Positions 17,027-53,946 of a stretch of 60,494 nucleotides of DNA are shown in pieces; position 1 is the first letter of the stretch, and the number at the start of each line of letters is the position of its first letter. The position numbers and the translations under genes were made by a program. The DNA lies in the NCBI GenBank assembly GCA_964636275.1, contig CAZWRN010000005.1, positions 1-60,494 on the forward strand. Direction: 5' to 3'. The notes beneath the pieces are model-generated. The model worked only from the letters and a program-made list of their open reading frames with translations, did no database searches and was not told where the DNA came from. This stretch comes from an uncultured Gammaproteobacteria bacterium (GTDB taxonomy: Bacteria; Patescibacteriota; Microgenomatia; Daviesbacterales; UBA10151).

Positions 17027-20000
17027 ATGCAAAACAATTTAGTTGATTTTAATGCACTACAAGTACTGATTGCTTCACCAGAGCAGGTACGCTCATGGTC
17101 TTTTGGTGAGGTTACCAGACCAGAGACTATCAATTACCGAACTTTGAAAGCTGAAAAAGATGGGCTGTTTGCCGAGAATATTTTTGGTCCAACTAAAGAT
17201 TGGGAATGTTATTGCGGTAAATACAAAAGAATTCGTTATCGAGGTGTGATCTGTGATAAATGTGGTGTTGAAGTTACTCAGTCAAAAGTGCGACGAGAAA
17301 GAATGGGTCACATCACTTTGGCTACTCCAGTTGCTCATATTTGGTTTGTTAAAGGTGCTCCATCAAAACTGTCTTTGATTTTGGATTTGACTATGAAAAA
17401 CTTAGAAGCAGTTATTTACTTTGCTTCTTACCTGGTCATCTCTGTTGATGCTGATGCTAAAGCTAAAGCTATCGAATCTTTACAGAAACAACTTGATGCT
17501 AAACAAGAAGAATCCAAGAAAAACCTGGAAAAACAGATTGCTGAACTCGAAAAAACTCAAGAGGATGCCTCAAAAGAGCTAAAGAAAAAGATCACTGATA
17601 ATGAAAAGTTTGAATTAGCAGCATCTGAATCTCAGTTGCAAAGCCGAATGCAGATCGCTAAATTGCGAGAACAAAATCAAGTTGAACAGGGTCAGTTGGA
17701 AGAGATTTATAAAACAGTTACTGAGCTGGTCAAATCAATAGCTCCATCCAAGCTGATTTCTGAAGACGAATATAGTAAATTGTTTGAATACGATGTAGCC
17801 GAATTTTTGAAAGTTGGTATGGGTGCTGAAAGTTTGTTAGAAGTACTTTCTACCATTGATCTTGATAAATTGGCAGCTGATCTGCGACTTGAAGTATCTA
17901 AATCTTCTGGCCAGCGACATATCAAAGCAACTAAAAGACTTCGACTGATCGAAGGAATGAGAAGTGCTAAAGTCAATCCAGCCTGGATGATCATGAGCGT
18001 GCTTCCCGTCTTGCCACCAGATTTGCGACCAATGGTTCAATTACCTGGAGGTCGATTTGCTACCTCTGATTTGAACGATCTGTATCGACGAGTGATTAAC
18101 CGTAACAATCGATTGAAGAGACTGATCAACTTGGGTGCCCCAGAGATCATTTTGCGCAATGAAAAACGTATGTTGCAGGAAGCAGTTGATTCTTTGATCG
18201 ACACTACCAACCGCACAACTAGACGAGCAGGCACACACCAATTGCGATCTTTGTCTGAAATGTTGCGAGGAAAACAGGGCCGATTCCGACAAAACTTGTT
18301 GGGTAAGCGTGTGGATTACTCTGGTCGATCCGTTATCATCGTTGGTCCAAAACTCAAACTTCACCAAGTTGGTTTACCAAAAGAGATGGCTTTGGAGATG
18401 TTCAAACCATTTGTATTGCGGGAATTAATTTCCCGAGGTTTGGCTTCCAATGTTAAAGGAGCTAAAAATGTGCTGGAATTCCGACCACCAGAAGTTTGGG
18501 ATATTTTGGAAGAAGTTATCAAAGACCATCCAGTATTGATCAATCGTGCTCCAACTTTGCATAGATTGGGTATTCAGGCTTTCTTCCCTGTTTTGATTGA
18601 TGGAAATGCTATTCAAATCCACCCATGTATTTGTGCTGGATTTAATGCTGACTTTGATGGAGATCAGATGGCTGTTCACGTCCCATTGTCTGAAAAAGCT
18701 AAAGAAGAAGCTAAGAACTTGATGATGGCAAAAGAAAATATTTTACGACCATCAAACTCTAGTCCAATCAACGTTCCAAACCGAGAAATGGCGTTGGGTT
18801 CTTACTATGTCACTTCAGTTGATAAAACATTTGAACTTGGTGAAAAAGTTTATGGTGAGCAGGATGCAGTTTTTGCTTATCAGATGGGTGAACTAAATCT
18901 TCGAGCTCTTATTAAGGTCGCTATGAAGGGTGACGTAGTTGAAACGACTGTTGGACGAATTATCTTTAATAGTTTCCTCCCTGAACAGTTGCGATTTGTT
19001 AATGAAACTATCAACAACTCAGGAATTGCTAAGATCATCATGAAAGCTTTTAAACAGTTCCCTAAAGATGAAGTGGCGAAACTGATTGATGATATTAAAG
19101 AGTTTGGTTTCTGGGGTGCTACTATCTCAGGTTTGTCAGTTGGGATATTTGATAATAATATTATCTCGGAAAAAAGAGATTTGATCGCCAATGGTGATAA
19201 AGAGATTTTGGAGATTGAAGAAAATCTAGCCAAAGGTTTGATCACTGATGAAGAACGACGAGCCTTGGCTCAAGAGGTTTGGACCAGAGTTGGTGATGAA
19301 ATCGTGCGAAAGACAATCGCAGCTATCCCAAGTGATTCTCCAATTGAGATCATTATGAGATCTGGAGGTGCTCGTGCAACTACCGCCCAGATCGCGCAGA
19401 CTGCTGGTATGCGAGGATTCTCAGTTGATCCAACTGGTAAGATCGTAGAATTGCCTACCAAGTCTAACTACCGAGAAGGATTGGGTGTGTTTGAGTACTT
19501 TACCTCTTGTCGAGGTGCTAGAAAAGGTGTGGCTGACCGTGCTATCCGAACTGCTGATGCTGGTTATCTGACTCGAAGATTGGTTGATGTGTCTCACGAT
19601 GTCATCATTCGAATTGAAGATTGTAACACTACAAATGGGACTGTTCTGGAAGTTCCTAAAAACAATCCAGGTCAGGTATCTACTCGATTCTTGGGTCGAA
19701 AAGTGGTTGGTAAAGTAGTTGATGCTAAGACCAAAAAGACCATTATTGAAGATGGAGCATTTATTGAAGAAGCTGAAGTAGATGTGTTGGCTTCTGCTGA
19801 TGTTGAAGAGATCACTGTTCGAACTCCTTTGACTTGTGATTCTAAGTATGGACTTTGTGCAGCTTGTTACGGTTTGGATCTATCAAGTCGAAAACCAGTG
19901 GAACTTGGTACGCCAGTAGGTGTTATTGCTGCTCAAGCTATTGGTGAGCCAGGTACTCAGCTGACTATGCGTACCTTCCACTCAGGAGGTGTTGTTGGTG

Positions 20001-20719
20001 CGGATATTACACAGGGTTTGCCACGTGTTGAAGAGCTGTATGAGGCACGGGTACCAAAAGCAGTGGCCCCAATTGCTGAAATTGCAGGTAAAGTAACCAT
20101 CTCAGAAACTGAAGAAGGTACAGTAGTTCGGGTTCGCACAACATCTAAACCTCATACTGAGAGAGAATACGCTATTCCAAAAAATGCGACCTTACTGGTA
20201 AATGATGGTGACACTATCGAAGCTGGTACTCAAATAATTGGTGGTCATTTGGATATTAGAGAAGTTTTGCGAATTCAGGGGCTACGAGCAGCTCAGCGAT
20301 ATATCGTTGATGCAACTCGTGAAGTGTATGAATCTCAGGGTGTGCAGATCAACGAAAAGCATTTTGAAGTGATCGTACGAAAGATGTCTGATAAAGTTCG
20401 TGTTGAGTCACAAGGTGATACAGTATTGCTTCCAGGTGAAGTAATCAACCGAACCAAATTTGAAGAAGAAAACACTCGGATTTTGGCTGAAGGTGGTGAA
20501 CCAGCAACTGCTGCAGTGATCATCTTGGGTATTACCAGAGCTTCACTTCAGACTGAAAGCTTCTTGTCAGCTGCCTCATTCGTTGAGACAACTACAGTCC
20601 TTTCAGAGGCTGCAACTACTGGAAAGATTGATAAGTTGCTTGGATTGAAAGAAAATGTTATTATAGGACGTCTGATACCTACGAGCGAAGATAGAGCGAA
20701 GCTCAACCAAGTTGCTTAG
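17027..20719 (+). CDS. rpoC: RNA polymerase beta-prime subunit
   Basis: Zn-finger [33 protein letters not shown]. Confidence 0.99.
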
Positions 20720-20828
20720 GTATTAGATCAGACGTCCTTAACCTTGAGGTTTGTAAAAACCGAAAGGAGTTATAGGTCGACTAATTCCAACAAGTGAAGA
20801 TCGAGCAAAGCTCAATCAAGTAGCTTAA
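20661..20828 (+). other. 109-nt insert with synonymously recoded duplicate of the last 18 rpoC codons
   Basis: TTATAGG direct repeat (20661/20770); [18 protein letters not shown] encoded twice; 12-bp antisense arm. Confidence 0.9.
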
Positions 20829-20957
20829 TGGTTTAGAACACTGCAAAGTTTTTTAACTTTGTAGAGTAATCGCCTAAAAGCGATGAAGGGTTTTTTAGAA
20901 TTACTTTTGTATTCTTCAGATCCTTCATTTGCTTTCAGAAAATTAGGAAATTATAAA

Positions 20958-21380
20958 ATGCCGACGATTAATCAATTAGTTAAAAAAGGACGATCAAAAG
21001 TAGTCAAGAAAGTGAAGGCTACCGCTTTGCGACGTTCTTACAACGGATTACACCGGGTTTATAGCAGTACATCAAATCCTCAAAAACGGGGAGTTGTGAC
21101 ATTGGTTCGAACTATGACTCCAAAGAAACCTAACTCAGCTTTGCGAAAAGTGGCTAGAGTCCGACTTTCCAACCGTACTGAGGTAACAGCCTACATTCAG
21201 GGGATTGGGCATGATTTAGCTGAGCACGGTATCGTTTTAGTTCGAGGCGGACGTGTTAAAGATTTGCCAGGTGTGAAATACCATTTAGTACGAGGCAAGC
21301 TCGATTTGGGTGGAGTTCAAAAACGAACAACCTCCAGATCAAAATATGGTGCTAAAAAACCAATGGCTAAAGCAGCCTAA
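20958..21380 (+). CDS. rpsL: 30S ribosomal protein S12
   Basis: [28 protein letters not shown]; start moved to ATG 20958. Confidence 0.99.
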
Positions 21381-21507
21381 AAGAAAGGAATAACCAAGAA
21401 ACAAGATACAAGTACCAAACAAAAACCATTTAATCAATTAAATAATTATTAAATTGAAAATTGTTTGGAGAACTTGAATAATTGGAAACTTGATTAATTA
21501 ACTAAAA
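21381..21507 (+). repeat. Heptamer-periodic hairpin spacer (CAAG/CTTG type)
   Basis: aaccaag aaacaag atacaag ... gaacttg aataattg gaaacttg; preceded by AAGAAAGGAA. Confidence 0.7.
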
Positions 21508-21981
21508 ATGCGAGGAAGAAAAGCAATCAAACGAATAGCTCTGCCAGATCCGATCTATAACAGTCGGGTTTTGACCAAGCTGATAAATAAAATTATGTTG
21601 GATGGTAAAAAAACCATTGCGCAATCTTTGGTTTATAAAGCTATGGCCGAGATTGAAAAATCTGGTAAAAATCCTATGACTGTCTTTGATACAGCCATGG
21701 CTAATATCTCTCCAAAAATGGAAGTTCGACCACGACGAGTTGGTGGTGCTTCTTATCAGGTACCAGTTGAAGTAAGAGGAGATCGAAAAGAATCGTTAGC
21801 AATTCGATGGTTGGTAGACGCTGCTCGAAAAAGAGGTAATGGTCAGTACAAAACATTTGCCGCTAAGCTGGCAGCTGAGATCCAAGATGCAGCAAATGGT
21901 GCAGGAGCTGCTGTACGAAAGAAAGAAGATACATTGAGAATGGCGGAGGCGAATAAAGCTTTTGCCCACTTCAGATGGTAA
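21508..21981 (+). CDS. rpsG: 30S ribosomal protein S7
   Basis: [24 protein letters not shown]. Confidence 0.99.
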
Positions 21982-22049
21982 GCTAGTGGTGCAAAACCTT
22001 TGATTTCTCCTTCGTCGAAATTAAAGCCTTCGCGCATTTCCGCTGGTAA
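21954..22049 (+). other. 68-nt insert with synonymously recoded duplicate of the last 8 rpsG codons
   Basis: TAAAGC direct repeat (21954/22022); KAFAHFRW* encoded twice; antisense arm plus 10-bp hairpin. Confidence 0.88.
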
Positions 22050-22078
22050 ATTTCTTTTACAACTGGATCAAGTATCCT

Positions 22079-22104
22079 AAGCCTCCTTGTGGGGCTTTTT
22101 ATTT
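22079..22104 (+). terminator. Intrinsic terminator after rpsG and its duplicate end
   Basis: AAGCCTC-CTTGT-GGGGCTT followed by a T-rich tract. Confidence 0.7.
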
Positions 22105-22182
22105 GTTCAAACAAGTCAGGTTGGTGTCCGGACATTCCAAGATTTATACTATAAAATGTAAGATATAATTCTGGTTTATAAG

Positions 22183-22211
22183 TTGACTTTTTTTGAAGCA
22201 CAAGGTAAGAT
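22183..22211 (+). promoter_or_regulatory. Promoter of the GreA-N gene
   Basis: TTGACT-N17-TAAGAT. Confidence 0.7.
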
Positions 22212-22276
22212 TTACATTCCTAAACAGGTTACTGAGACCCCGAATAGGGGTTTTTGCTTGTTAGGACAATCTAATT

Positions 22277-22537
22277 ATGACTAAGCCAATTGACGAAAAA
22301 TTACTCCGACAAAAGCTGGAGATGTGGACAAAAAAAGTTAACGATCTAGAAAAAGAATATGAAGTAACCATGGTTGCTCGAGGTGAAGCGGCTCGTGAAG
22401 GTGATTTGCGAGAAAATGCCGCTTATCAGATGTTGACTGAAAAAGGTGAATTCATTTCAGCTCAAATTGGAAACACTAAAAAGATTATTGTCGAATTAAA
22501 ATCCCAGCTAGGTGAAGAGTTGTCCGAAGTCGCTTAG
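22277..22537 (+). CDS. GreA/GreB N-terminal coiled-coil domain protein (no C-terminal domain)
   Basis: ARGEAAREGDLRENAAYQ matches the Gre acidic tip; only 86 aa. Confidence 0.8.
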   Translation: MTKPIDEKLLRQKLEMWTKKVNDLEKEYEVTMVARGEAAREGDLRENAAYQMLTEKGEFISAQIGNTKKIIVELKSQLGEELSEVA

Positions 22538-22553
22538 CTGATATAGTTTGTGA

Positions 22554-22582
22554 TTGACTTGAAGCTAAATTTAGGTTAATAT
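22554..22582 (+). promoter_or_regulatory. fusA promoter
   Basis: TTGACT-N17-TAATAT. Confidence 0.65.
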
Positions 22583-22625
22583 ACCCGTATAAGTCCTCTG
22601 AGGAGGATTTTTTTATAATCAAGAT

Positions 22626-24767
22626 ATGGCATCACAAAATAAAACAAAAAGAGATTTTCCATTAAATCAAATCCGCAATATCGGTATTATTGCGCATATT
22701 GACGCCGGTAAAACAACTACGACTGAACGAATCCTTTTCTACACTGGTCGAACCTACAAAATTGGGGATATTGACGATGGTACAACTACTACTGACTGGA
22801 TGGAGCAAGAAAAAGAACGAGGTATTACTATCGTATCAGCGGCTATCACTACATTTTGGACTCCAAAGAGTGGTCCTTTTAAAGATCAAGAATTTCGAAT
22901 CAATTTGATCGATACTCCAGGTCACGTCGATTTTACTGTTGAAGTAGAGCGATCACTCCGTGTACTTGATGGGGGTGTAATCGTTTTGGATTCAGCTTCA
23001 GGTGTTCAGTCACAGACTGAAACTGTCTGGAGGCAAGCTGATAAATATGGAGTTCCTCTGATTGCTTTTTCCAACAAAATGGACGTTTTGGGTGCTGACT
23101 TTTTAGGAACTATTCAATCTGCTCGTGATCGGCTTGGTGCAAATGCATTAGCTTACAACTTACCAATTGGATCTGAAAATGATTTTAAAGGAATTGTTGA
23201 CCTTTTGACTAAGAAGGCCTTTATTTGGCTGGGGGATGAAACCGGCGCTAAATTTGAGGAACGAGAAATTCCTGAAGATATGGTTTCAGAAGTTGAAAAA
23301 CACCGAGAAAAATTAGTTGAAGAAATTGCTGCAACCGATGAAGGTTTGATGGAAAAATATCTTAATGGGGAAGAGCTTTCGATCGATGAATTAAAAGCAG
23401 CTTTGCGACAAGCAGTAATCTCTAAAAAGATAGTCCCTGTTTTGGCTGGATCTTCTCTACGTAACAAAGGTGTTCAACCGATGCTTGATGCAGTTATGGA
23501 GTTTTTACCTTCTCCACAAGATATTCCAAGTGTAAAAGGTGTTATTCCTGAGACTGGTGAAGAAAGAACGCAAGAAAATACTAAAGATGCACCTTTGGGG
23601 GCTTTAGCCTTTAAAATTCAGATTGATCCACACGTTGGACGACTTACCTATGTTCGTGTTTATTCCGGAACCCTAAAAGCAGGATCAACTATTTATAACT
23701 CGACTAAACAGGTTAAAGAGCGAGTAGGTCGTGTGCTTTTAATGCACGCTAATGAACGGGAAGAGATTGATGAAGCCTACGCAGGAGAAATTGTGGCAGT
23801 GGTTGGTTTGAAAGATACTATCACTGGGGATTCATTGGTAAACGAAGGAAATCCATTAGTTTTGGAATCCATTACTTTTGCTGAGCCGGTGATTTCCCTG
23901 GCTATTGAACCAAAAACCAAATCTGATCAGGAAAAGTTGGCTTTAGCTTTACAACGACTGGCCGAAGAAGATCCAACATTCCGGGTTAAGGCTAACGCCG
24001 AGACCGGTCAAACCATCATTTCTGGAATGGGTGAGTTGCATCTGGAAATTATCGTGGATCGCATGAAGCGAGAGTTTAAAGTGGAAGCAAATATTGGTGA
24101 ACCACAAGTCGCTTATAAAGAGACGATTACCATGCCAGCTCAGGGTGAGGGTAAATACATCCGACAAACTGGTGGTCGAGGTCAATATGGTCACGCTATG
24201 ATTAAAATTGAGCCACTGCCACGAGGGACAGGACGTGAATTCATTTCCGAAGTTGTTGGGGGTAGGATCCCACGTGAATTTATCGCACCTATAGGCAAAG
24301 GTATTGAAGAAAAAGAGGATAGTGGATTGTTGGCTGGTTTCCCTGTTGTTGATGTCAAAGCGACTGTATATGATGGTTCATTCCATGATGTTGATTCTTC
24401 AGAGGTAGCCTTTAAGATCGCGGGAAGTATGGCTTTGGCTGATGCTGCGCAAAGAGCGGGATTGATCCTGCTTGAGCCAATTATGAAGGTTGAGGTTTCA
24501 ACACCTGAAGAGTTTATGGGGGACTTGATCGGTGACCTATCTTCAAAAAGAGCTCAAATTTTGGGGACTGAAAAACACGGAAATTCATCGATTATTAACG
24601 CTTTGGTTCCGTTAGCTGAATTGGGTGGGTATATAACGGCAATTAGATCGATGTCCCAAGGAAGAGCAACCGCTTATATTGAGCCATCTCATTATGAAGA
24701 GGTTCCCGCCAACATTACTCAAAAAGTTGTAGCTGCTTCTGGTTTTACGGGCCGAGTTGAACACTAG
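22626..24767 (+). CDS. fusA: Elongation factor G
   Basis: [31 protein letters not shown]. Confidence 0.99.
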
Positions 24768-26643: not shown

Positions 26644-27025
26644 CGTCATTTTGAGGAGCGAAGCGATGTAAGAATCTTAATCAATTATGTCTCTATAAAG
26701 GTCAGTGAGTGAAGGATTAAATTTTTTGATTAGCTGCGCTTTCTTTTTACGAGAATACTTCTTTAACTGTTGTTCCCTTTCGACCATTGAATGAGCTGAA
26801 CCAATGATTTCATAATATAGTAGATCATGACATTTGTATCTTTTCGTAAATCCTTCGAATTGTTCATTTTTGTGTTGCCAAATCTGCCTGCCAAGTTGCT
26901 TGATGATCCAACGCAAAGAACTGTTCTAGTGAAATTGCTAACAATGTAAACTGAATAAATTTTGTTTTTCATGTTTTAATTAGATCATGACGCGTATATA
27001 CTTTGTAAGTTCGCTCATGATGACG
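26644..27025. mobile_element. REP-like (CGTCAT...ATGACG) cassette enclosing a GIY-YIG gene
   Basis: Left arm CGTCATTTTGAGGAGCGAAGCGATGTAAGAATCT; right arm AGATC...CGCTCATGATGACG; terminal 6-bp inverted repeat. Confidence 0.5.
26677..26972 (-). pseudogene. Frameshifted GIY-YIG nuclease (UPF0213/YhbQ-like)
   Basis: YSVYIV..LCVG in one frame joins WQHK..GFTKRY..LLYYE..REQQLK in another; one base missing near 26883. Confidence 0.8.
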
Positions 27026-52691: not shown

Positions 52692-53810
52692 ATGAAAGAA
52701 TTTATTATTCCATTTATCATCCTATTGGTTGGTTTTGGGGCCTATTTTTTATTTATTGGTAAAGGTGTTTTTTTCTTGCCTACCAAAGAGATGGTTGCCC
52801 ACCAAAAAGCTCAACCGGCCTATTATCCGCCGGCAAGTGGTTTGCCTGCAGCAACTGTACCTCCACAGACTTTGACACTTGAGTCAATTTTTAAATCAAC
52901 CCACGTCTTACCCGTCAGGAGCGGATTACCTGTTATTACTTTGGTTGCAACTGGAGATGTGATACCAGCTAGAAGTGTCAATTATCAGGTGATCACTAGA
53001 AAAGATTTTACCTGGCCTTATTTAAAAACGGCGGACAAGCTTAAAGAAGCAGATATTACCTTTATCAACTTGGAAACTCCGCTGATCAAAAATTGCCCGG
53101 TGACTCAGGAAGGGATGAATTTTTGTGGAGATGCCAGAAATATTGAGGGGCTGATATATGCCGGAGTAGATGTAGCCAATCTGGCCAACAACCATCTTGG
53201 TAACAAAGGCAAAGCTGGAGTTGATGAGACAATAGCCGGACTGAAAAAAGCCGGAATTCAAACGACCGGTAGTGGCGACAATCTAGCTATATTAGAAGTT
53301 AGAGGGATCAAGTTTGCTTTTTTGGGATACAACGATATTGAGAAAACTCCTTTAGTGACTTCAGCCGATGAAAAATTGGTGGAAAAAGAGGTGTCAGAAG
53401 CCAAAAAGAAAGCGGATGTGGTGGTGGTGCAGTTTCACTGGGGGACAGAGTATAAAACTGAAGTTGAAGACAGGCAAAAAGCGTTGGGTAGACTAGCGAT
53501 AGATAGTGGAGCCGATCTAGTAATTGGTAATCATCCGCATTGGATAAAGCCGATTGAGCTCTACAAGGATAAATTGATCACCTATGCTCATGGTAATTTT
53601 GTCTTTGATCAGGAATGGTCACAAAAGACCAAAGAGGGAGTTGTAGGAAGATATGTTTTTATTGGCAAAAATCTGGTTGATGTGGAGTTTTTGCCGGTTG
53701 AGATCAAAGATTATGGACAACCTTATTTTCTGGAGGGTGATGCTAAGCAAAAGATTTTGGATGAGATGTATGAAGCTAGTAAACAGATGAGATCGGATGA
53801 GATCAGATAG
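52692..53810 (+). CDS. CapA/PGA_cap family metallophosphoesterase-like protein
   Basis: ATGDV, NLETP, ANNH, HWGTEY, GNHPH, HGNFVFDQ. Confidence 0.9.
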   Translation: MKEFIIPFIILLVGFGAYFLFIGKGVFFLPTKEMVAHQKAQPAYYPPASGLPAATVPPQTLTLESIFKSTHVLPVRSGLPVITLVATGDVIPARSVNYQVITRKDFTWPYLKTADKLKEADITFINLETPLIKNCPVTQEGMNFCGDARNIEGLIYAGVDVANLANNHLGNKGKAGVDETIAGLKKAGIQTTGSGDNLAILEVRGIKFAFLGYNDIEKTPLVTSADEKLVEKEVSEAKKKADVVVVQFHWGTEYKTEVEDRQKALGRLAIDSGADLVIGNHPHWIKPIELYKDKLITYAHGNFVFDQEWSQKTKEGVVGRYVFIGKNLVDVEFLPVEIKDYGQPYFLEGDAKQKILDEMYEASKQMRSDEIR

Positions 53811-53946
53811 ATCGGATGAGATCGGATAGATCGGATAGATCGGATAGATCGGATAGATCGGATAGATCGGATGAGATCAGATAGATCGGATGAGATCAGA
53901 TAGATCGGATGAGATCAGATAAATCGGATGAAATCGGATAAATCAG
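53787..53946 (+). repeat. Tandem array of 17 9/10-bp units (ATAGATCGG / ATGAGATCRG)
   Basis: Hand-parsed: eight 9-mers, six 10-mers, three degenerate units; overlaps the capA stop. Confidence 0.95.

Follow-up and report, generated by a model that had tools for sequence, protein, structure and literature searches.

The window analyzed here, a 60,494-nt stretch of DNA from an uncultured bacterium (contig CAZWRN010000005.1 of assembly GCA_964636275.1; G+C 37.7%), carries at the 3' ends of rpsG and rpoC a duplication of the last codons of the gene, in which both copies spell the same peptide with different codons and are separated by a short spacer lacking an open reading frame (ORF). Our analysis of this DNA and of related loci suggests that the window holds two copies of a non-autonomous mobile cassette that spreads by gene conversion together with a recoded gene tail, a tentative reading to which we give slightly less than even weight. 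The recurrence of a mobile-looking phenomenon at the rpsG, rpoC and fusA tails of Microgenomates-type bacteria is itself real, and its mechanism is half resolved. As we picture it, the cassette (~68-110 nt, with no ORF of its own) would consist of re-spelled last codons with their stop codon, an inverted copy of this tail forming a long hairpin, and a short second hairpin. It would be seated directly in front of the last codons already resident in a highly conserved essential gene (rpsG or rpoC), with the gene ending in the tail of the cassette and the native tail lying downstream, untranslated. The host is a member of the Candidate Phyla Radiation (CPR) near Daviesbacteria/Microgenomates, with a uS7 protein 70-75% identical to source-named Daviesbacteria proteins, and the gene cluster in question reads rpoB-rpoC-rpsL-rpsG, a small GreA_N-only gene, and fusA-tuf-rpsJ.

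The original prediction was that the last eight codons of rpsG are duplicated with synonymous recoding, and this holds: both copies encode KAFAHFRW followed by a stop codon, with 6 base differences in 5 codons, all of them silent. The parts of this region are as follows.

21508-21981, forward strand: rpsG, encoding ribosomal protein uS7 (157 aa; ORF translation, and Pfam PF00177 on an identical protein); ends in copy A.
21942-21974, forward strand: 5' arm of rpsG hairpin 1 in the minimum-free-energy RNA fold; lies in coding sequence.
21955-21981, forward strand: rpsG copy A, AAA GCT TTT GCC CAC TTC AGA TGG TAA; translated tail, within the putative inserted module.
21975-21982, forward strand: apical loop of hairpin 1 (RNA fold), containing the rpsG stop codon (21979-81).
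21982-22022, forward strand: rpsG spacer "ins1", the 41 nt between the tails, as read from the sequence.
21983-22016, forward strand: 3' arm of hairpin 1 (RNA fold), which repeats the tail region of copy A imperfectly in inverted orientation.
21998-22026, forward strand: alternative hairpin 2, CTTTGATTTC / GAAATTAAAG, which shares sequence with the end of hairpin 1 and with the start of copy B.
22023-22049, forward strand: rpsG copy B, AAA GCC TTC GCG CAT TTC CGC TGG TAA; displaced native-type tail, untranslated in the frame as written.
22079-22097, forward strand: intrinsic-terminator-like hairpin with T run, 3' of copy B (terminator scan).

The direct tails share an identical start (TAAAGC) and recur with a period of 68 nt, which places copy B in another frame. 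An inverted repeat enclosing the stop codon had also been noted, and we recovered it: TTTTGCCCACT (21960-70) pairs with AGTGGTGCAAAA (21985-96) with one bulged T, and the 3' arm matches copy A at 11/11 positions, with 4 mismatches to copy B. This pairing is part of a much longer structure whose extent the original prediction undersold. Hairpin 1 has ~30 bp and a predicted energy of -55 kcal/mol (z = -4.0; 0/200 shuffles fold as well), and in this modeled fold nearly all of the 41-nt spacer repeats the upstream tail in inverted orientation, and the stop codon lies at the hairpin apex. The second, 10-bp hairpin proposed earlier is likewise present, with CTTTGATTTC (21998-22007) pairing with GAAATTAAAG (22017-26) through 9 Watson-Crick pairs and 1 G-T pair. 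Copies A and B start with the same sequence, so that both are possible pairing partners for the end of the inverted copy; its pairing with copy B is hairpin 2.

The only terminator-like site found, at 22079-97, follows copy B, with both copies upstream of it as had been claimed, and a sequence scan detected no promoter or terminator consensus between the rpsG copies. Both copies are thus predicted to be transcribed. The terminator scan called neither hairpin 1 nor hairpin 2, so that intrinsic terminators, called only at the separate downstream site, were rejected as the identity of these hairpins. Regarding codon usage, copy A is typical for the genome (logL -7.1) and copy B is atypical (logL -11.3, <1% quantile). 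Copy B resembles the native tails of relatives carrying a single, "empty" tail, including its atypical codon spellings; these spellings common to relatives hint that the native rpsG tail is under some nucleotide-level constraint.

The rpoC gene presents a second instance of the same layout, as had been pointed out, with no sequence in common with the rpsG case. Its parts are the following.

20663-20719, forward strand: rpoC copy A, an 18-residue translated tail plus TAG, at the end of rpoC (17027-20719).
20665-20676, forward strand: 5' arm of the rpoC inverted repeat, AGGACGTCTGAT (sequence and RNA fold).
20720-20768, forward strand: rpoC spacer, 49 nt, holding the 3' arm ATCAGACGTCCT (20727-20738) and a second hairpin, CCTT-GA-GGTTT / AAACC-GA-AAGG.
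20769-20828, forward strand: rpoC copy B, 19 residues plus TAA (the 18-residue repeat at 20772-20828), followed by native downstream sequence.

Both rpoC copies encode the same 18-residue peptide, with 11/18 codons and the stop codon spelled differently, and share a short identical start, TTATAGG. The inverted repeat is a perfect 12-bp match (20665-76 / 20727-38), and its stem is lengthened by the pairings TACCTA/TAGGTA, in which the stop codon takes part, and AGCGA/TTGCT; the unit folds more strongly than that of rpsG (z = -5.9, with 0/200 shuffles as good). Here the rare codons are found in copy A (logL -28.5, <1% quantile), in which nearly all silent choices add base pairs to the fold, and copy B is typical (logL -21.5). 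The sequence 3' of copy B is homologous to that of the empty relative L087 (L numbers designate the loci of relatives). We also considered whether copy B could be a separate ORF, and rejected this: it has no in-frame start and, with a Shine-Dalgarno-like AAAGGAG just upstream, no usable one. As a separate observation, the G-R-L codons form a 6-bp palindrome in both copies, GACGTC in copy A (20666-20671) and GTCGAC in copy B (20775-20780), and relatives carry either of them (GACGTC in L087, GTCGAC in L116).

Chance resemblance or mis-assembly would be the most trivial explanation for these tail repeats, and apart from the small size of the repeat nothing speaks in its favor. The chance expectation for repeats this exact in the window is ~6e-9 for rpsG and ~2e-20 for rpoC, and the probability that all differences would be silent if one copy had drifted freely is 4e-5 and 1e-7, respectively. 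The original prediction asked for read support and conservation, and in our comparison the arrangement proved reproducible: the rpsG region is identical base for base in 5 other assemblies and the rpoC region in 4, which come from different samples and represent two haplotypes, and the module is fixed in the window species. With homologous arrangements in six other lineages besides, and an expectation below 1e-8, we consider the probability of such an artifact negligible. A protein-level scan of all ORF tails against the downstream 400-500 nt revealed no duplicated gene tails in the window other than those of rpsG and rpoC. As a negative control we used a GTDB uS7 scan, in which the matches listed are ~60% identical and mostly from Firmicutes; the 582 kb around rpsG and the str operon in 80 mostly Firmicutes genomes among these matches contain no tail duplication.

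Among 18 related lineages, 7 carry an rpsG-tail module (filled) and 11 are single-tailed, and the modules fall into at least 4 sequence families. The filled relatives, with the identity of their uS7 to that of the window, are:

L086/L087 (uS7 90% identical): three tails in a row, A-ins1-B-ins2-C.
L094 (89%): ins2 only, B-ins2-C.
L088-L091 (86%): ins1 and a decayed copy B.
L116 (78%): a different spacer, of 50 nt.
L117/L118 (74%): an ins2-type spacer.
L107 (65%): a 44-nt spacer.

The design is common to these elements: each has its own tail spelling, an inverted copy of this tail and a second hairpin, followed by the resident tail, which begins at the same nucleotide in every one (T|TAAAG or T|TAAGG). 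Spacers of the rpsG and rpoC elements range from 41 to 76 nt and hold no ORF. The stop codon also lies at or near the hairpin apex in L107, L116 and L086, and the fold z-score is between -2.7 and -5.7 in 5/6 of the relatives' elements, L117 having no excess structure (z = 0.1). The stems of L107 and L116 consist of Watson-Crick pairs throughout. Between the window and L086, an AAA-to-AAG change in hairpin 1 is compensated by a CCTTT-to-CCCTT change, the one compensatory change observed, and the second hairpin of ins2 is retained with different sequences (TATTGAAA/TTTCAATA versus ATTACAA/TTGTAAT). Displaced tails are mostly intact reading frames with silent differences, as would be expected if each insertion were recent relative to neutral decay; older-looking displaced tails are found in L088 and, to a small degree, in L117 and in copy C of L086. 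The CCTTG...GAT motif shared by spacers was dismissed as a signal of its own, as it simply complements the K-A codons with which the tails begin. No further spacer copies were found in the window or in ~1 Mb of other loci compared, and within this DNA there is no sign of a genome-wide family of miniature inverted-repeat transposable elements (MITEs).

The clearest evidence on which copy is new comes from the near-clonal pair L107 (filled) and L108 (empty). No difference separates these loci in 6766 nt on the downstream side or in 126 nt on the upstream side (100% identity), and they are distinguished solely by an 80-nt block. Of the two tails of L107, the downstream one is exactly the single native tail of L108, and the upstream one departs from it at 10/36 positions; these include two silent changes (GAG GCT to GAA GCC) immediately to the left of the duplicated part. 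Six native bases (GGCTAA) are also replaced. Since L107 lacks the native GAGGCTAA in front of copy B, L108 cannot have arisen from it by deletion, and it is L107 that gained the block. Of the eight contigs spanning the site in this population, seven are empty. The pair L088 (filled) and L093 (empty) is in line with this polarity: with an identical uS7 protein, their genes differ at 18/474 nt, and 6 of these differences fall within the last 28 nt (Fisher p = 3e-4). As read from these alleles, the comparison shows that the upstream tail and spacer arrive together as the newcomer and that the native tail is displaced downstream. The idea, implicit in the original prediction, of an in-place duplication that was later recoded is excluded for the L107 and L088 alleles; in the former the downstream copy is the untouched native tail.

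These alleles also bear on the possibility that the tail was copied in place by a template switch during replication or repair, in which synthesis would pass to the opposite strand and return upstream, leaving direct, inverted and direct copies that then diverged. The geometry is exactly of this kind, and the all-Watson-Crick stems of L107 and L116 are what such copying predicts. However, the copies would be identical at birth, and the upstream copy of L107 is already divergent in a near-clonal pair; the differences between copies A and B are all silent although copy B is untranslated; and spacers of different lineages are 91-92% identical. Sequence comparison thus refutes a template switch as the origin of the L107 allele, and as a general explanation we regard it as very improbable, although the first cassette could have originated in this way. 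The changed left-flank bases and the replaced native bases of L107 also fit neither a cut-and-paste insertion nor a conservative site-specific exchange.

The distribution of spacers is discordant with the gene tree: ins1 occurs in the window, L086 and L088, and ins2 in L086, L094 and L117, the lineages being roughly equidistant. Spacers are also more similar than the genes that carry them. The ins2 spacers of L094 and L086 are identical at 61/66 positions (92%) versus 55% at rpsG four-fold sites (p = 3e-11), and the ins1 spacers of the window and L086 at 31/34 positions (91%) versus 46% (p = 4e-8); intergenic DNA past the last tail cannot be aligned in these lineage pairs. This comparison of loci shows that what we interpret as a cassette is gained and lost among close relatives, can stack, and is far better conserved than neutral sequence. 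At rpoC, the two haplotypes of the window species are 2% different across rpoC and fusA and have 0 differences in ~448 nt around the cassette (20600-21046; P = 1e-4), a tract that fits a recent sweep or conversion. Separately, the rpsL-rpsG spacer (21379-21507) shows many indels and substitutions between two haplotypes that are ~2% different elsewhere.

A beneficial RNA 3'-end module could account for part of this evidence. Here the hairpin, in which the last codons and their stop are buried, would stabilize or insulate the rpsG or rpoC message and spread by ordinary recombination under positive selection, with the old tail as a by-product and with the tail and its complement having to travel as one unit. 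The strong structures of both window cassettes and of five of the six relatives' elements, the compensatory change in hairpin 1, the retention of the second ins2 hairpin, the conservation of spacers far above neutral, and fixation in the window species are all in line with such a role. So are the rare codons of rpoC copy A, nearly all of which add pairs, and selection for structure would explain fast recoding of this copy with copy B intact. Nevertheless, 11 of the 18 lineages do without the module, and only one of eight contigs in the L107/L108 population has it; native terminators already lie 3' of both genes; and L117 lacks excess structure. Rfam families gave no match at E <= 1, either within positions 20400-22700 or in the five related loci searched. 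Selection for a hairpin also leaves unexplained both the stacking in L086 and the fact that the native tail, rather than being replaced, is pushed downstream from one and the same nucleotide in every case. On balance, we find this explanation rather unlikely.

A mobile cassette copied by gene conversion would account for the displacement as follows. A filled allele would convert an empty one through a short conversion tract: a break at the native tail would be repaired from the filled allele, as in endonuclease homing. The left end would pair within the gene body and copy A, the right end would pair the native tail with copy B of the donor, and the interior would be copied. A tract that hugs the heterology on both sides is expected of break repair at the site and not of random transformation tracts. 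The recoded tail would preserve the gene and may protect it from any factor that cuts the native sequence or pairs with it, and the displaced native tail would serve as the right-hand homology arm, which may be why it is usually intact. Any nuclease involved would act in trans, and the hairpin may have an additional effect at the 3' end of the mRNA. We infer homing-like copying from a filled allele by analogy with such systems. The rpsG A tail itself may plausibly have been borrowed from a native tail, as similar native spellings occur in L120 and L121.

Several observations weigh against a homing cassette of this kind. The sole filled L107 allele lies at a contig end. No endonuclease, recombinase or transposase is encoded in or beside any rpsG or rpoC cassette, and homing leaves the inverted tail copy in every cassette unexplained; this copy may be a functional RNA 3' structure, a DNA hairpin recognized by an enzyme, or the trace of a template switch. 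Ordinary transformation and homologous recombination among coexisting strains could move the allele with no dedicated nuclease. The only nuclease candidate in the window, a GIY-YIG gene described below, is a minimal UPF0213-type domain with no DNA-binding module and no adjoining tail duplication, and its intact form is fixed in a population where the rpsG module is rare. Finally, the rpoC copies spell one lineage-specific peptide even though their silent sites are saturated, which a foreign donor tail does not predict.

This last point deserves more attention. The last ten residues of RpoC are hypervariable in the group, and the ending found in the window is absent from the other RpoC sequences compared. 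The 11/18 codons that differ match the 10.75 expected for independent back-translation. Since a foreign donor should differ in protein and an old in-place duplicate should show a decayed copy B, neither fits rpoC, and the borrowing of a native tail was rejected for its A tail given the lineage-specific peptide. Two ways out of the puzzle may be envisaged: fast selected recoding of copy A for structure, or repeated loss and regain of the cassette with copy B refreshed from empty alleles. That both rpoC tails are perfect spellings hints at regular loss and regain, with the tails taking turns, or at selective or mechanistic recoding.

With respect to an enzyme, the earlier proposal to look for empty and enzyme-carrying alleles in relatives was borne out in its first half, with empty alleles in L093, L108 and ten further lineages; no enzyme-carrying allele was found at rpsG or rpoC. 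A Pfam analysis of the 31 non-ribosomal ORFs of the window identified sugar, lipid and repair functions and no recombinase, transposase, reverse transcriptase or classical homing enzyme, and the 106-113-aa ORFs that adjoin rpsG or rpsL in relatives have no informative domains. The nuclease candidate is the following gene.

26677-26972, reverse strand: frameshifted small GIY-YIG gene (UPF0213/YhbQ-like), next after rpsJ, in which two overlapping ORFs match complementary halves of PF01541.

The gene is split by a one-base frameshift near 26900. An intact 90-aa homologue occupies the same site, on the opposite strand between rpsJ and rplC, in L130-L135 and L139 of the Daviesbacteria lineage, and tblastn yielded no matches in the other loci compared. 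Its structural relatives include PDB 1zg2 and 1ywl. This gene is the sole nuclease lead and only a candidate for a trans-acting enzyme; by analogy with homing enzyme genes, it may have decayed after fixation of the element. A viral source of the cassette was discarded, as the copy-A patterns were unmatched in viral contigs and the uS7 scan of these gave ordinary host-like loci only, such as L126 with a plain rpsG-fusA junction.

The only cargo-bearing tail duplication that we found is at fusA (L108 7349-8609; also in L107 and L130-L139, of the Daviesbacteria lineage). Here the tail copies share a 23-nt identical core and enclose 1.26 kb of DNA that encodes a Phd/YefM-ParE toxin-antitoxin pair and, on the opposite strand, an orphan 176-aa ORF; the end of the ParE gene coincides exactly with the start of the second fusA tail. 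The 176-aa ORF was rejected as an enzyme candidate, as no homologues or domains were found.

This case raises the possibility that the duplications are scars of a site-specific integrative element. A circle with a tail-mimicking attachment site would have been inserted by a tyrosine or serine recombinase, leaving a hybrid left site with the new tail and a right site with the old one, and its interior would later have been deleted to ~40-80 nt. The fusA duplication resembles a single reciprocal crossover, with its identical core, both flanks divergent and its cargo. The short identical starts of the rpsG and rpoC copies could be cores of this type, and a comparison with the native tail of L087, to which the first codons of rpoC copy A and the later codons of copy B are each similar, fits a reciprocal mosaic. 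Integration at gene 3' ends with supply of a replacement end is, moreover, known for streptococcal integrative conjugative elements (ICEs). Against this, a recombinase gene is found in no case, including the cargo-bearing fusA; L107 changed two bases left of the junction, and the sequence left of its copy B is non-native; a 68-bp double-stranded circle is too small as an intermediate; and viral contigs lack a matching tail pattern. Four independent remnants alike in small size and hairpin layout are also unlikely to result from random internal deletions. We therefore consider an integrative scar quite unlikely.

Other features of the window and of related loci concern the surroundings of these tails. 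The rpsL ORF (20883-21380) has 165 aa versus 140 aa in relatives; its canonical MPTINQL start is the ATG at 20959, and its initial 25 codons are thus probably not translated. Between rpsG and fusA, 22277-22537 encodes an 86-aa protein with a GreA/GreB N-terminal coiled-coil alone (weak Pfam match), which is conserved at this position across Microgenomates (46-82% identity, 20 metagenome loci). Immediately preceding this gene and fusA, respectively, 22183-22254 and 22554-22610 each hold a promoter-like TTGACT-17-TAAGAT/TAATAT with, within ~20 nt, a G+C hairpin and a T run. The same promoter-hairpin-gene order is present in relatives L088, L103, L105 and L109, and these hairpins may be conserved leader hairpins or attenuators.

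The spaces after rpsG, rpoC and fusA contain different lineage-specific genes in nearly every lineage (L088 2031-2351, L093 492-815, L087 411-752, L097, L099, L106, L117 and L119-L121). These genes include domainless small ORFs and code, for example, for a Trp-repressor-like protein, a histidine phosphatase, an SPFH protein or a 430-aa protein containing a Trans_reg_C domain, and the interior of the str operon is a hot spot for accessory genes. C-terminal pieces of Microgenomates RpoC (200-380 aa) are often called as separate proteins on long contigs (P0125, P0137, P0157, P0158, P0183 and P0185). In L119 (350-3019), rpoC is broken into at least 8 ORFs, and fusA is called as two pieces in L130, L131, L138 and L139; these broken calls may reflect split genes, frameshifts or assembly problems. 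Elsewhere in the window, a tandem array of 9-10-nt units (GATCGGATA / GATGAGATCA) at 53811-53945 begins at the stop codon of a PGA_cap gene (52692-53810) and repeats its last codons, RSDEIR and stop, three more times. We did not count it as another case like rpsG, as it is a simple slippage-type tandem array, different in kind.

If the cassette is truly mobile, few elements known to enter essential genes without harming them would be as small, and the strategy of mitochondrial homing elements to bring their own gene end would exist in bacteria, minus the enzyme. That it would amount to a previously undescribed class of minimal mobile element in the CPR (~70-110 nt, ORF-less, homing into the last codons of rpsG, rpoC or fusA with a re-spelled end and its reverse complement) is possible but, in our estimation, doubtful. 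In the streamlined genomes of the CPR, the duplications single out ultra-conserved gene tails as hot spots of recombination, and lineage-specific small genes and a toxin-antitoxin pair sit beside such tails. There are practical consequences as well: recoded tail duplicates break contigs at rpsG and rpoC, both standard phylogenetic markers, and could lead gene callers and strain-level analyses astray. In addition, the rpoC pair provides a natural complete silent recoding of a peptide, for which the selector may be sought in RNA structure, recombination avoidance or nuclease escape.

Several known classes of element or event were compared with these duplications and rejected. DDE-type insertion sequences and MITEs do not fit, as the inverted repeat is internal (tail versus mid-spacer) and the "duplication" measures 27-57 nt and is non-identical. 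IS200/IS605-type elements would share the two hairpins, yet the L107 event replaced GGCTAA and flank bases, and TnpA and TnpB were not found in the window. For a diversity-generating retroelement, the differing rpoC positions mix A, T, C and G in both copies, and no reverse transcriptase was found. Programmed translational bypass, as in T4 gene 60, is at odds with a complete copy A having its own stop 8 (rpsG) or 18 (rpoC) codons past the take-off and with a copy B in another frame. Integron attC sites and CRISPR- or casposon-like target duplication each fail a defining feature.

Streptococcal ICEs that integrate into the 3' ends of rpsI, rplL, rpmG and fda supply a replacement end and have decayed derivatives, the cis-mobilizable elements (CIMEs); such ICEs span kilobases, carry an integrase gene and have core repeats that are identical. 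The duplications described here are similar in that the 3' end of a conserved gene is targeted, and the insert restores the reading frame and lies between direct repeats of the gene end; the fusA case fits. They differ in having no recombinase, a total length of 68-110 nt, copies saturated at silent sites, and co-conversion of the flank in L107. A site-specific integrative element was accordingly rejected as a class, as Pfam found no recombinase gene in the fusA cargo or the 31 window ORFs, and so was conservative core exchange, given the flank changes of L107, the absence of GAGGCTAA before its copy B, and cores of 6-7 nt at rpsG and rpoC and 23 nt at fusA. Template-switch (quasi-palindrome) mutations also create hairpins, with copies that are identical and in place. 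The direct, inverted, direct layout and an inverted copy that forms a hairpin with its source are alike in both; the upstream copy described here, unlike those, arrives already diverged (L107).

Trans-acting enzymes offer a further parallel, since an account of phage T4 describes mobE as mobilizing in trans an intron that lacks I-TevIII (PMC2790892). An enzyme-less element of the present kind could likewise reach empty sites by copying, provided that a nuclease is supplied in trans, although the GIY-YIG gene of the window is a minimal UPF0213-type candidate and not a known homing enzyme.

The closest precedent is found in the endonuclease-encoding mobile ORFs (mORFs) of fungal mitochondria, in which the inserted C-terminus and the displaced native one share 64-81% of their DNA sequence and nearly all of their protein sequence, the native end matches close insert-free relatives, and presence or absence varies among close relatives (PMC3630166; PMC6279837). 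They are hosted by atp6 of Allomyces macrogynus, by atp6, atp9, cox2 and nad3 of Glomus, and by atp6 and cob of Endoconidiophora, and a LAGLIDADG or GIY-YIG endonuclease gene of ~0.4-1 kb lies between the copies (PMC3630166; PMC6279837). The present duplications depart from this family in its defining feature, as no endonuclease ORF separates the copies: the rpsG and rpoC spacers are ORF-less and mainly inverted tail, and the fusA cargo is not a nuclease. They also differ in their CPR bacterial host, in targeting rpsG, rpoC and fusA, and in an inserted rpoC tail that is not foreign in protein. What both share is an inserted in-frame copy of the 3' end that is divergent in DNA and conserved in protein, as in the silent differences of rpsG and the 11/18 codons of rpoC, together with a displaced native end that matches insert-free relatives, as in L107/L108, with rpsG copy B of the window resembling native tails and rpoC copy B leading into native downstream sequence; to this arrangement, the duplications described here add a hairpin formed by the inverted tail.

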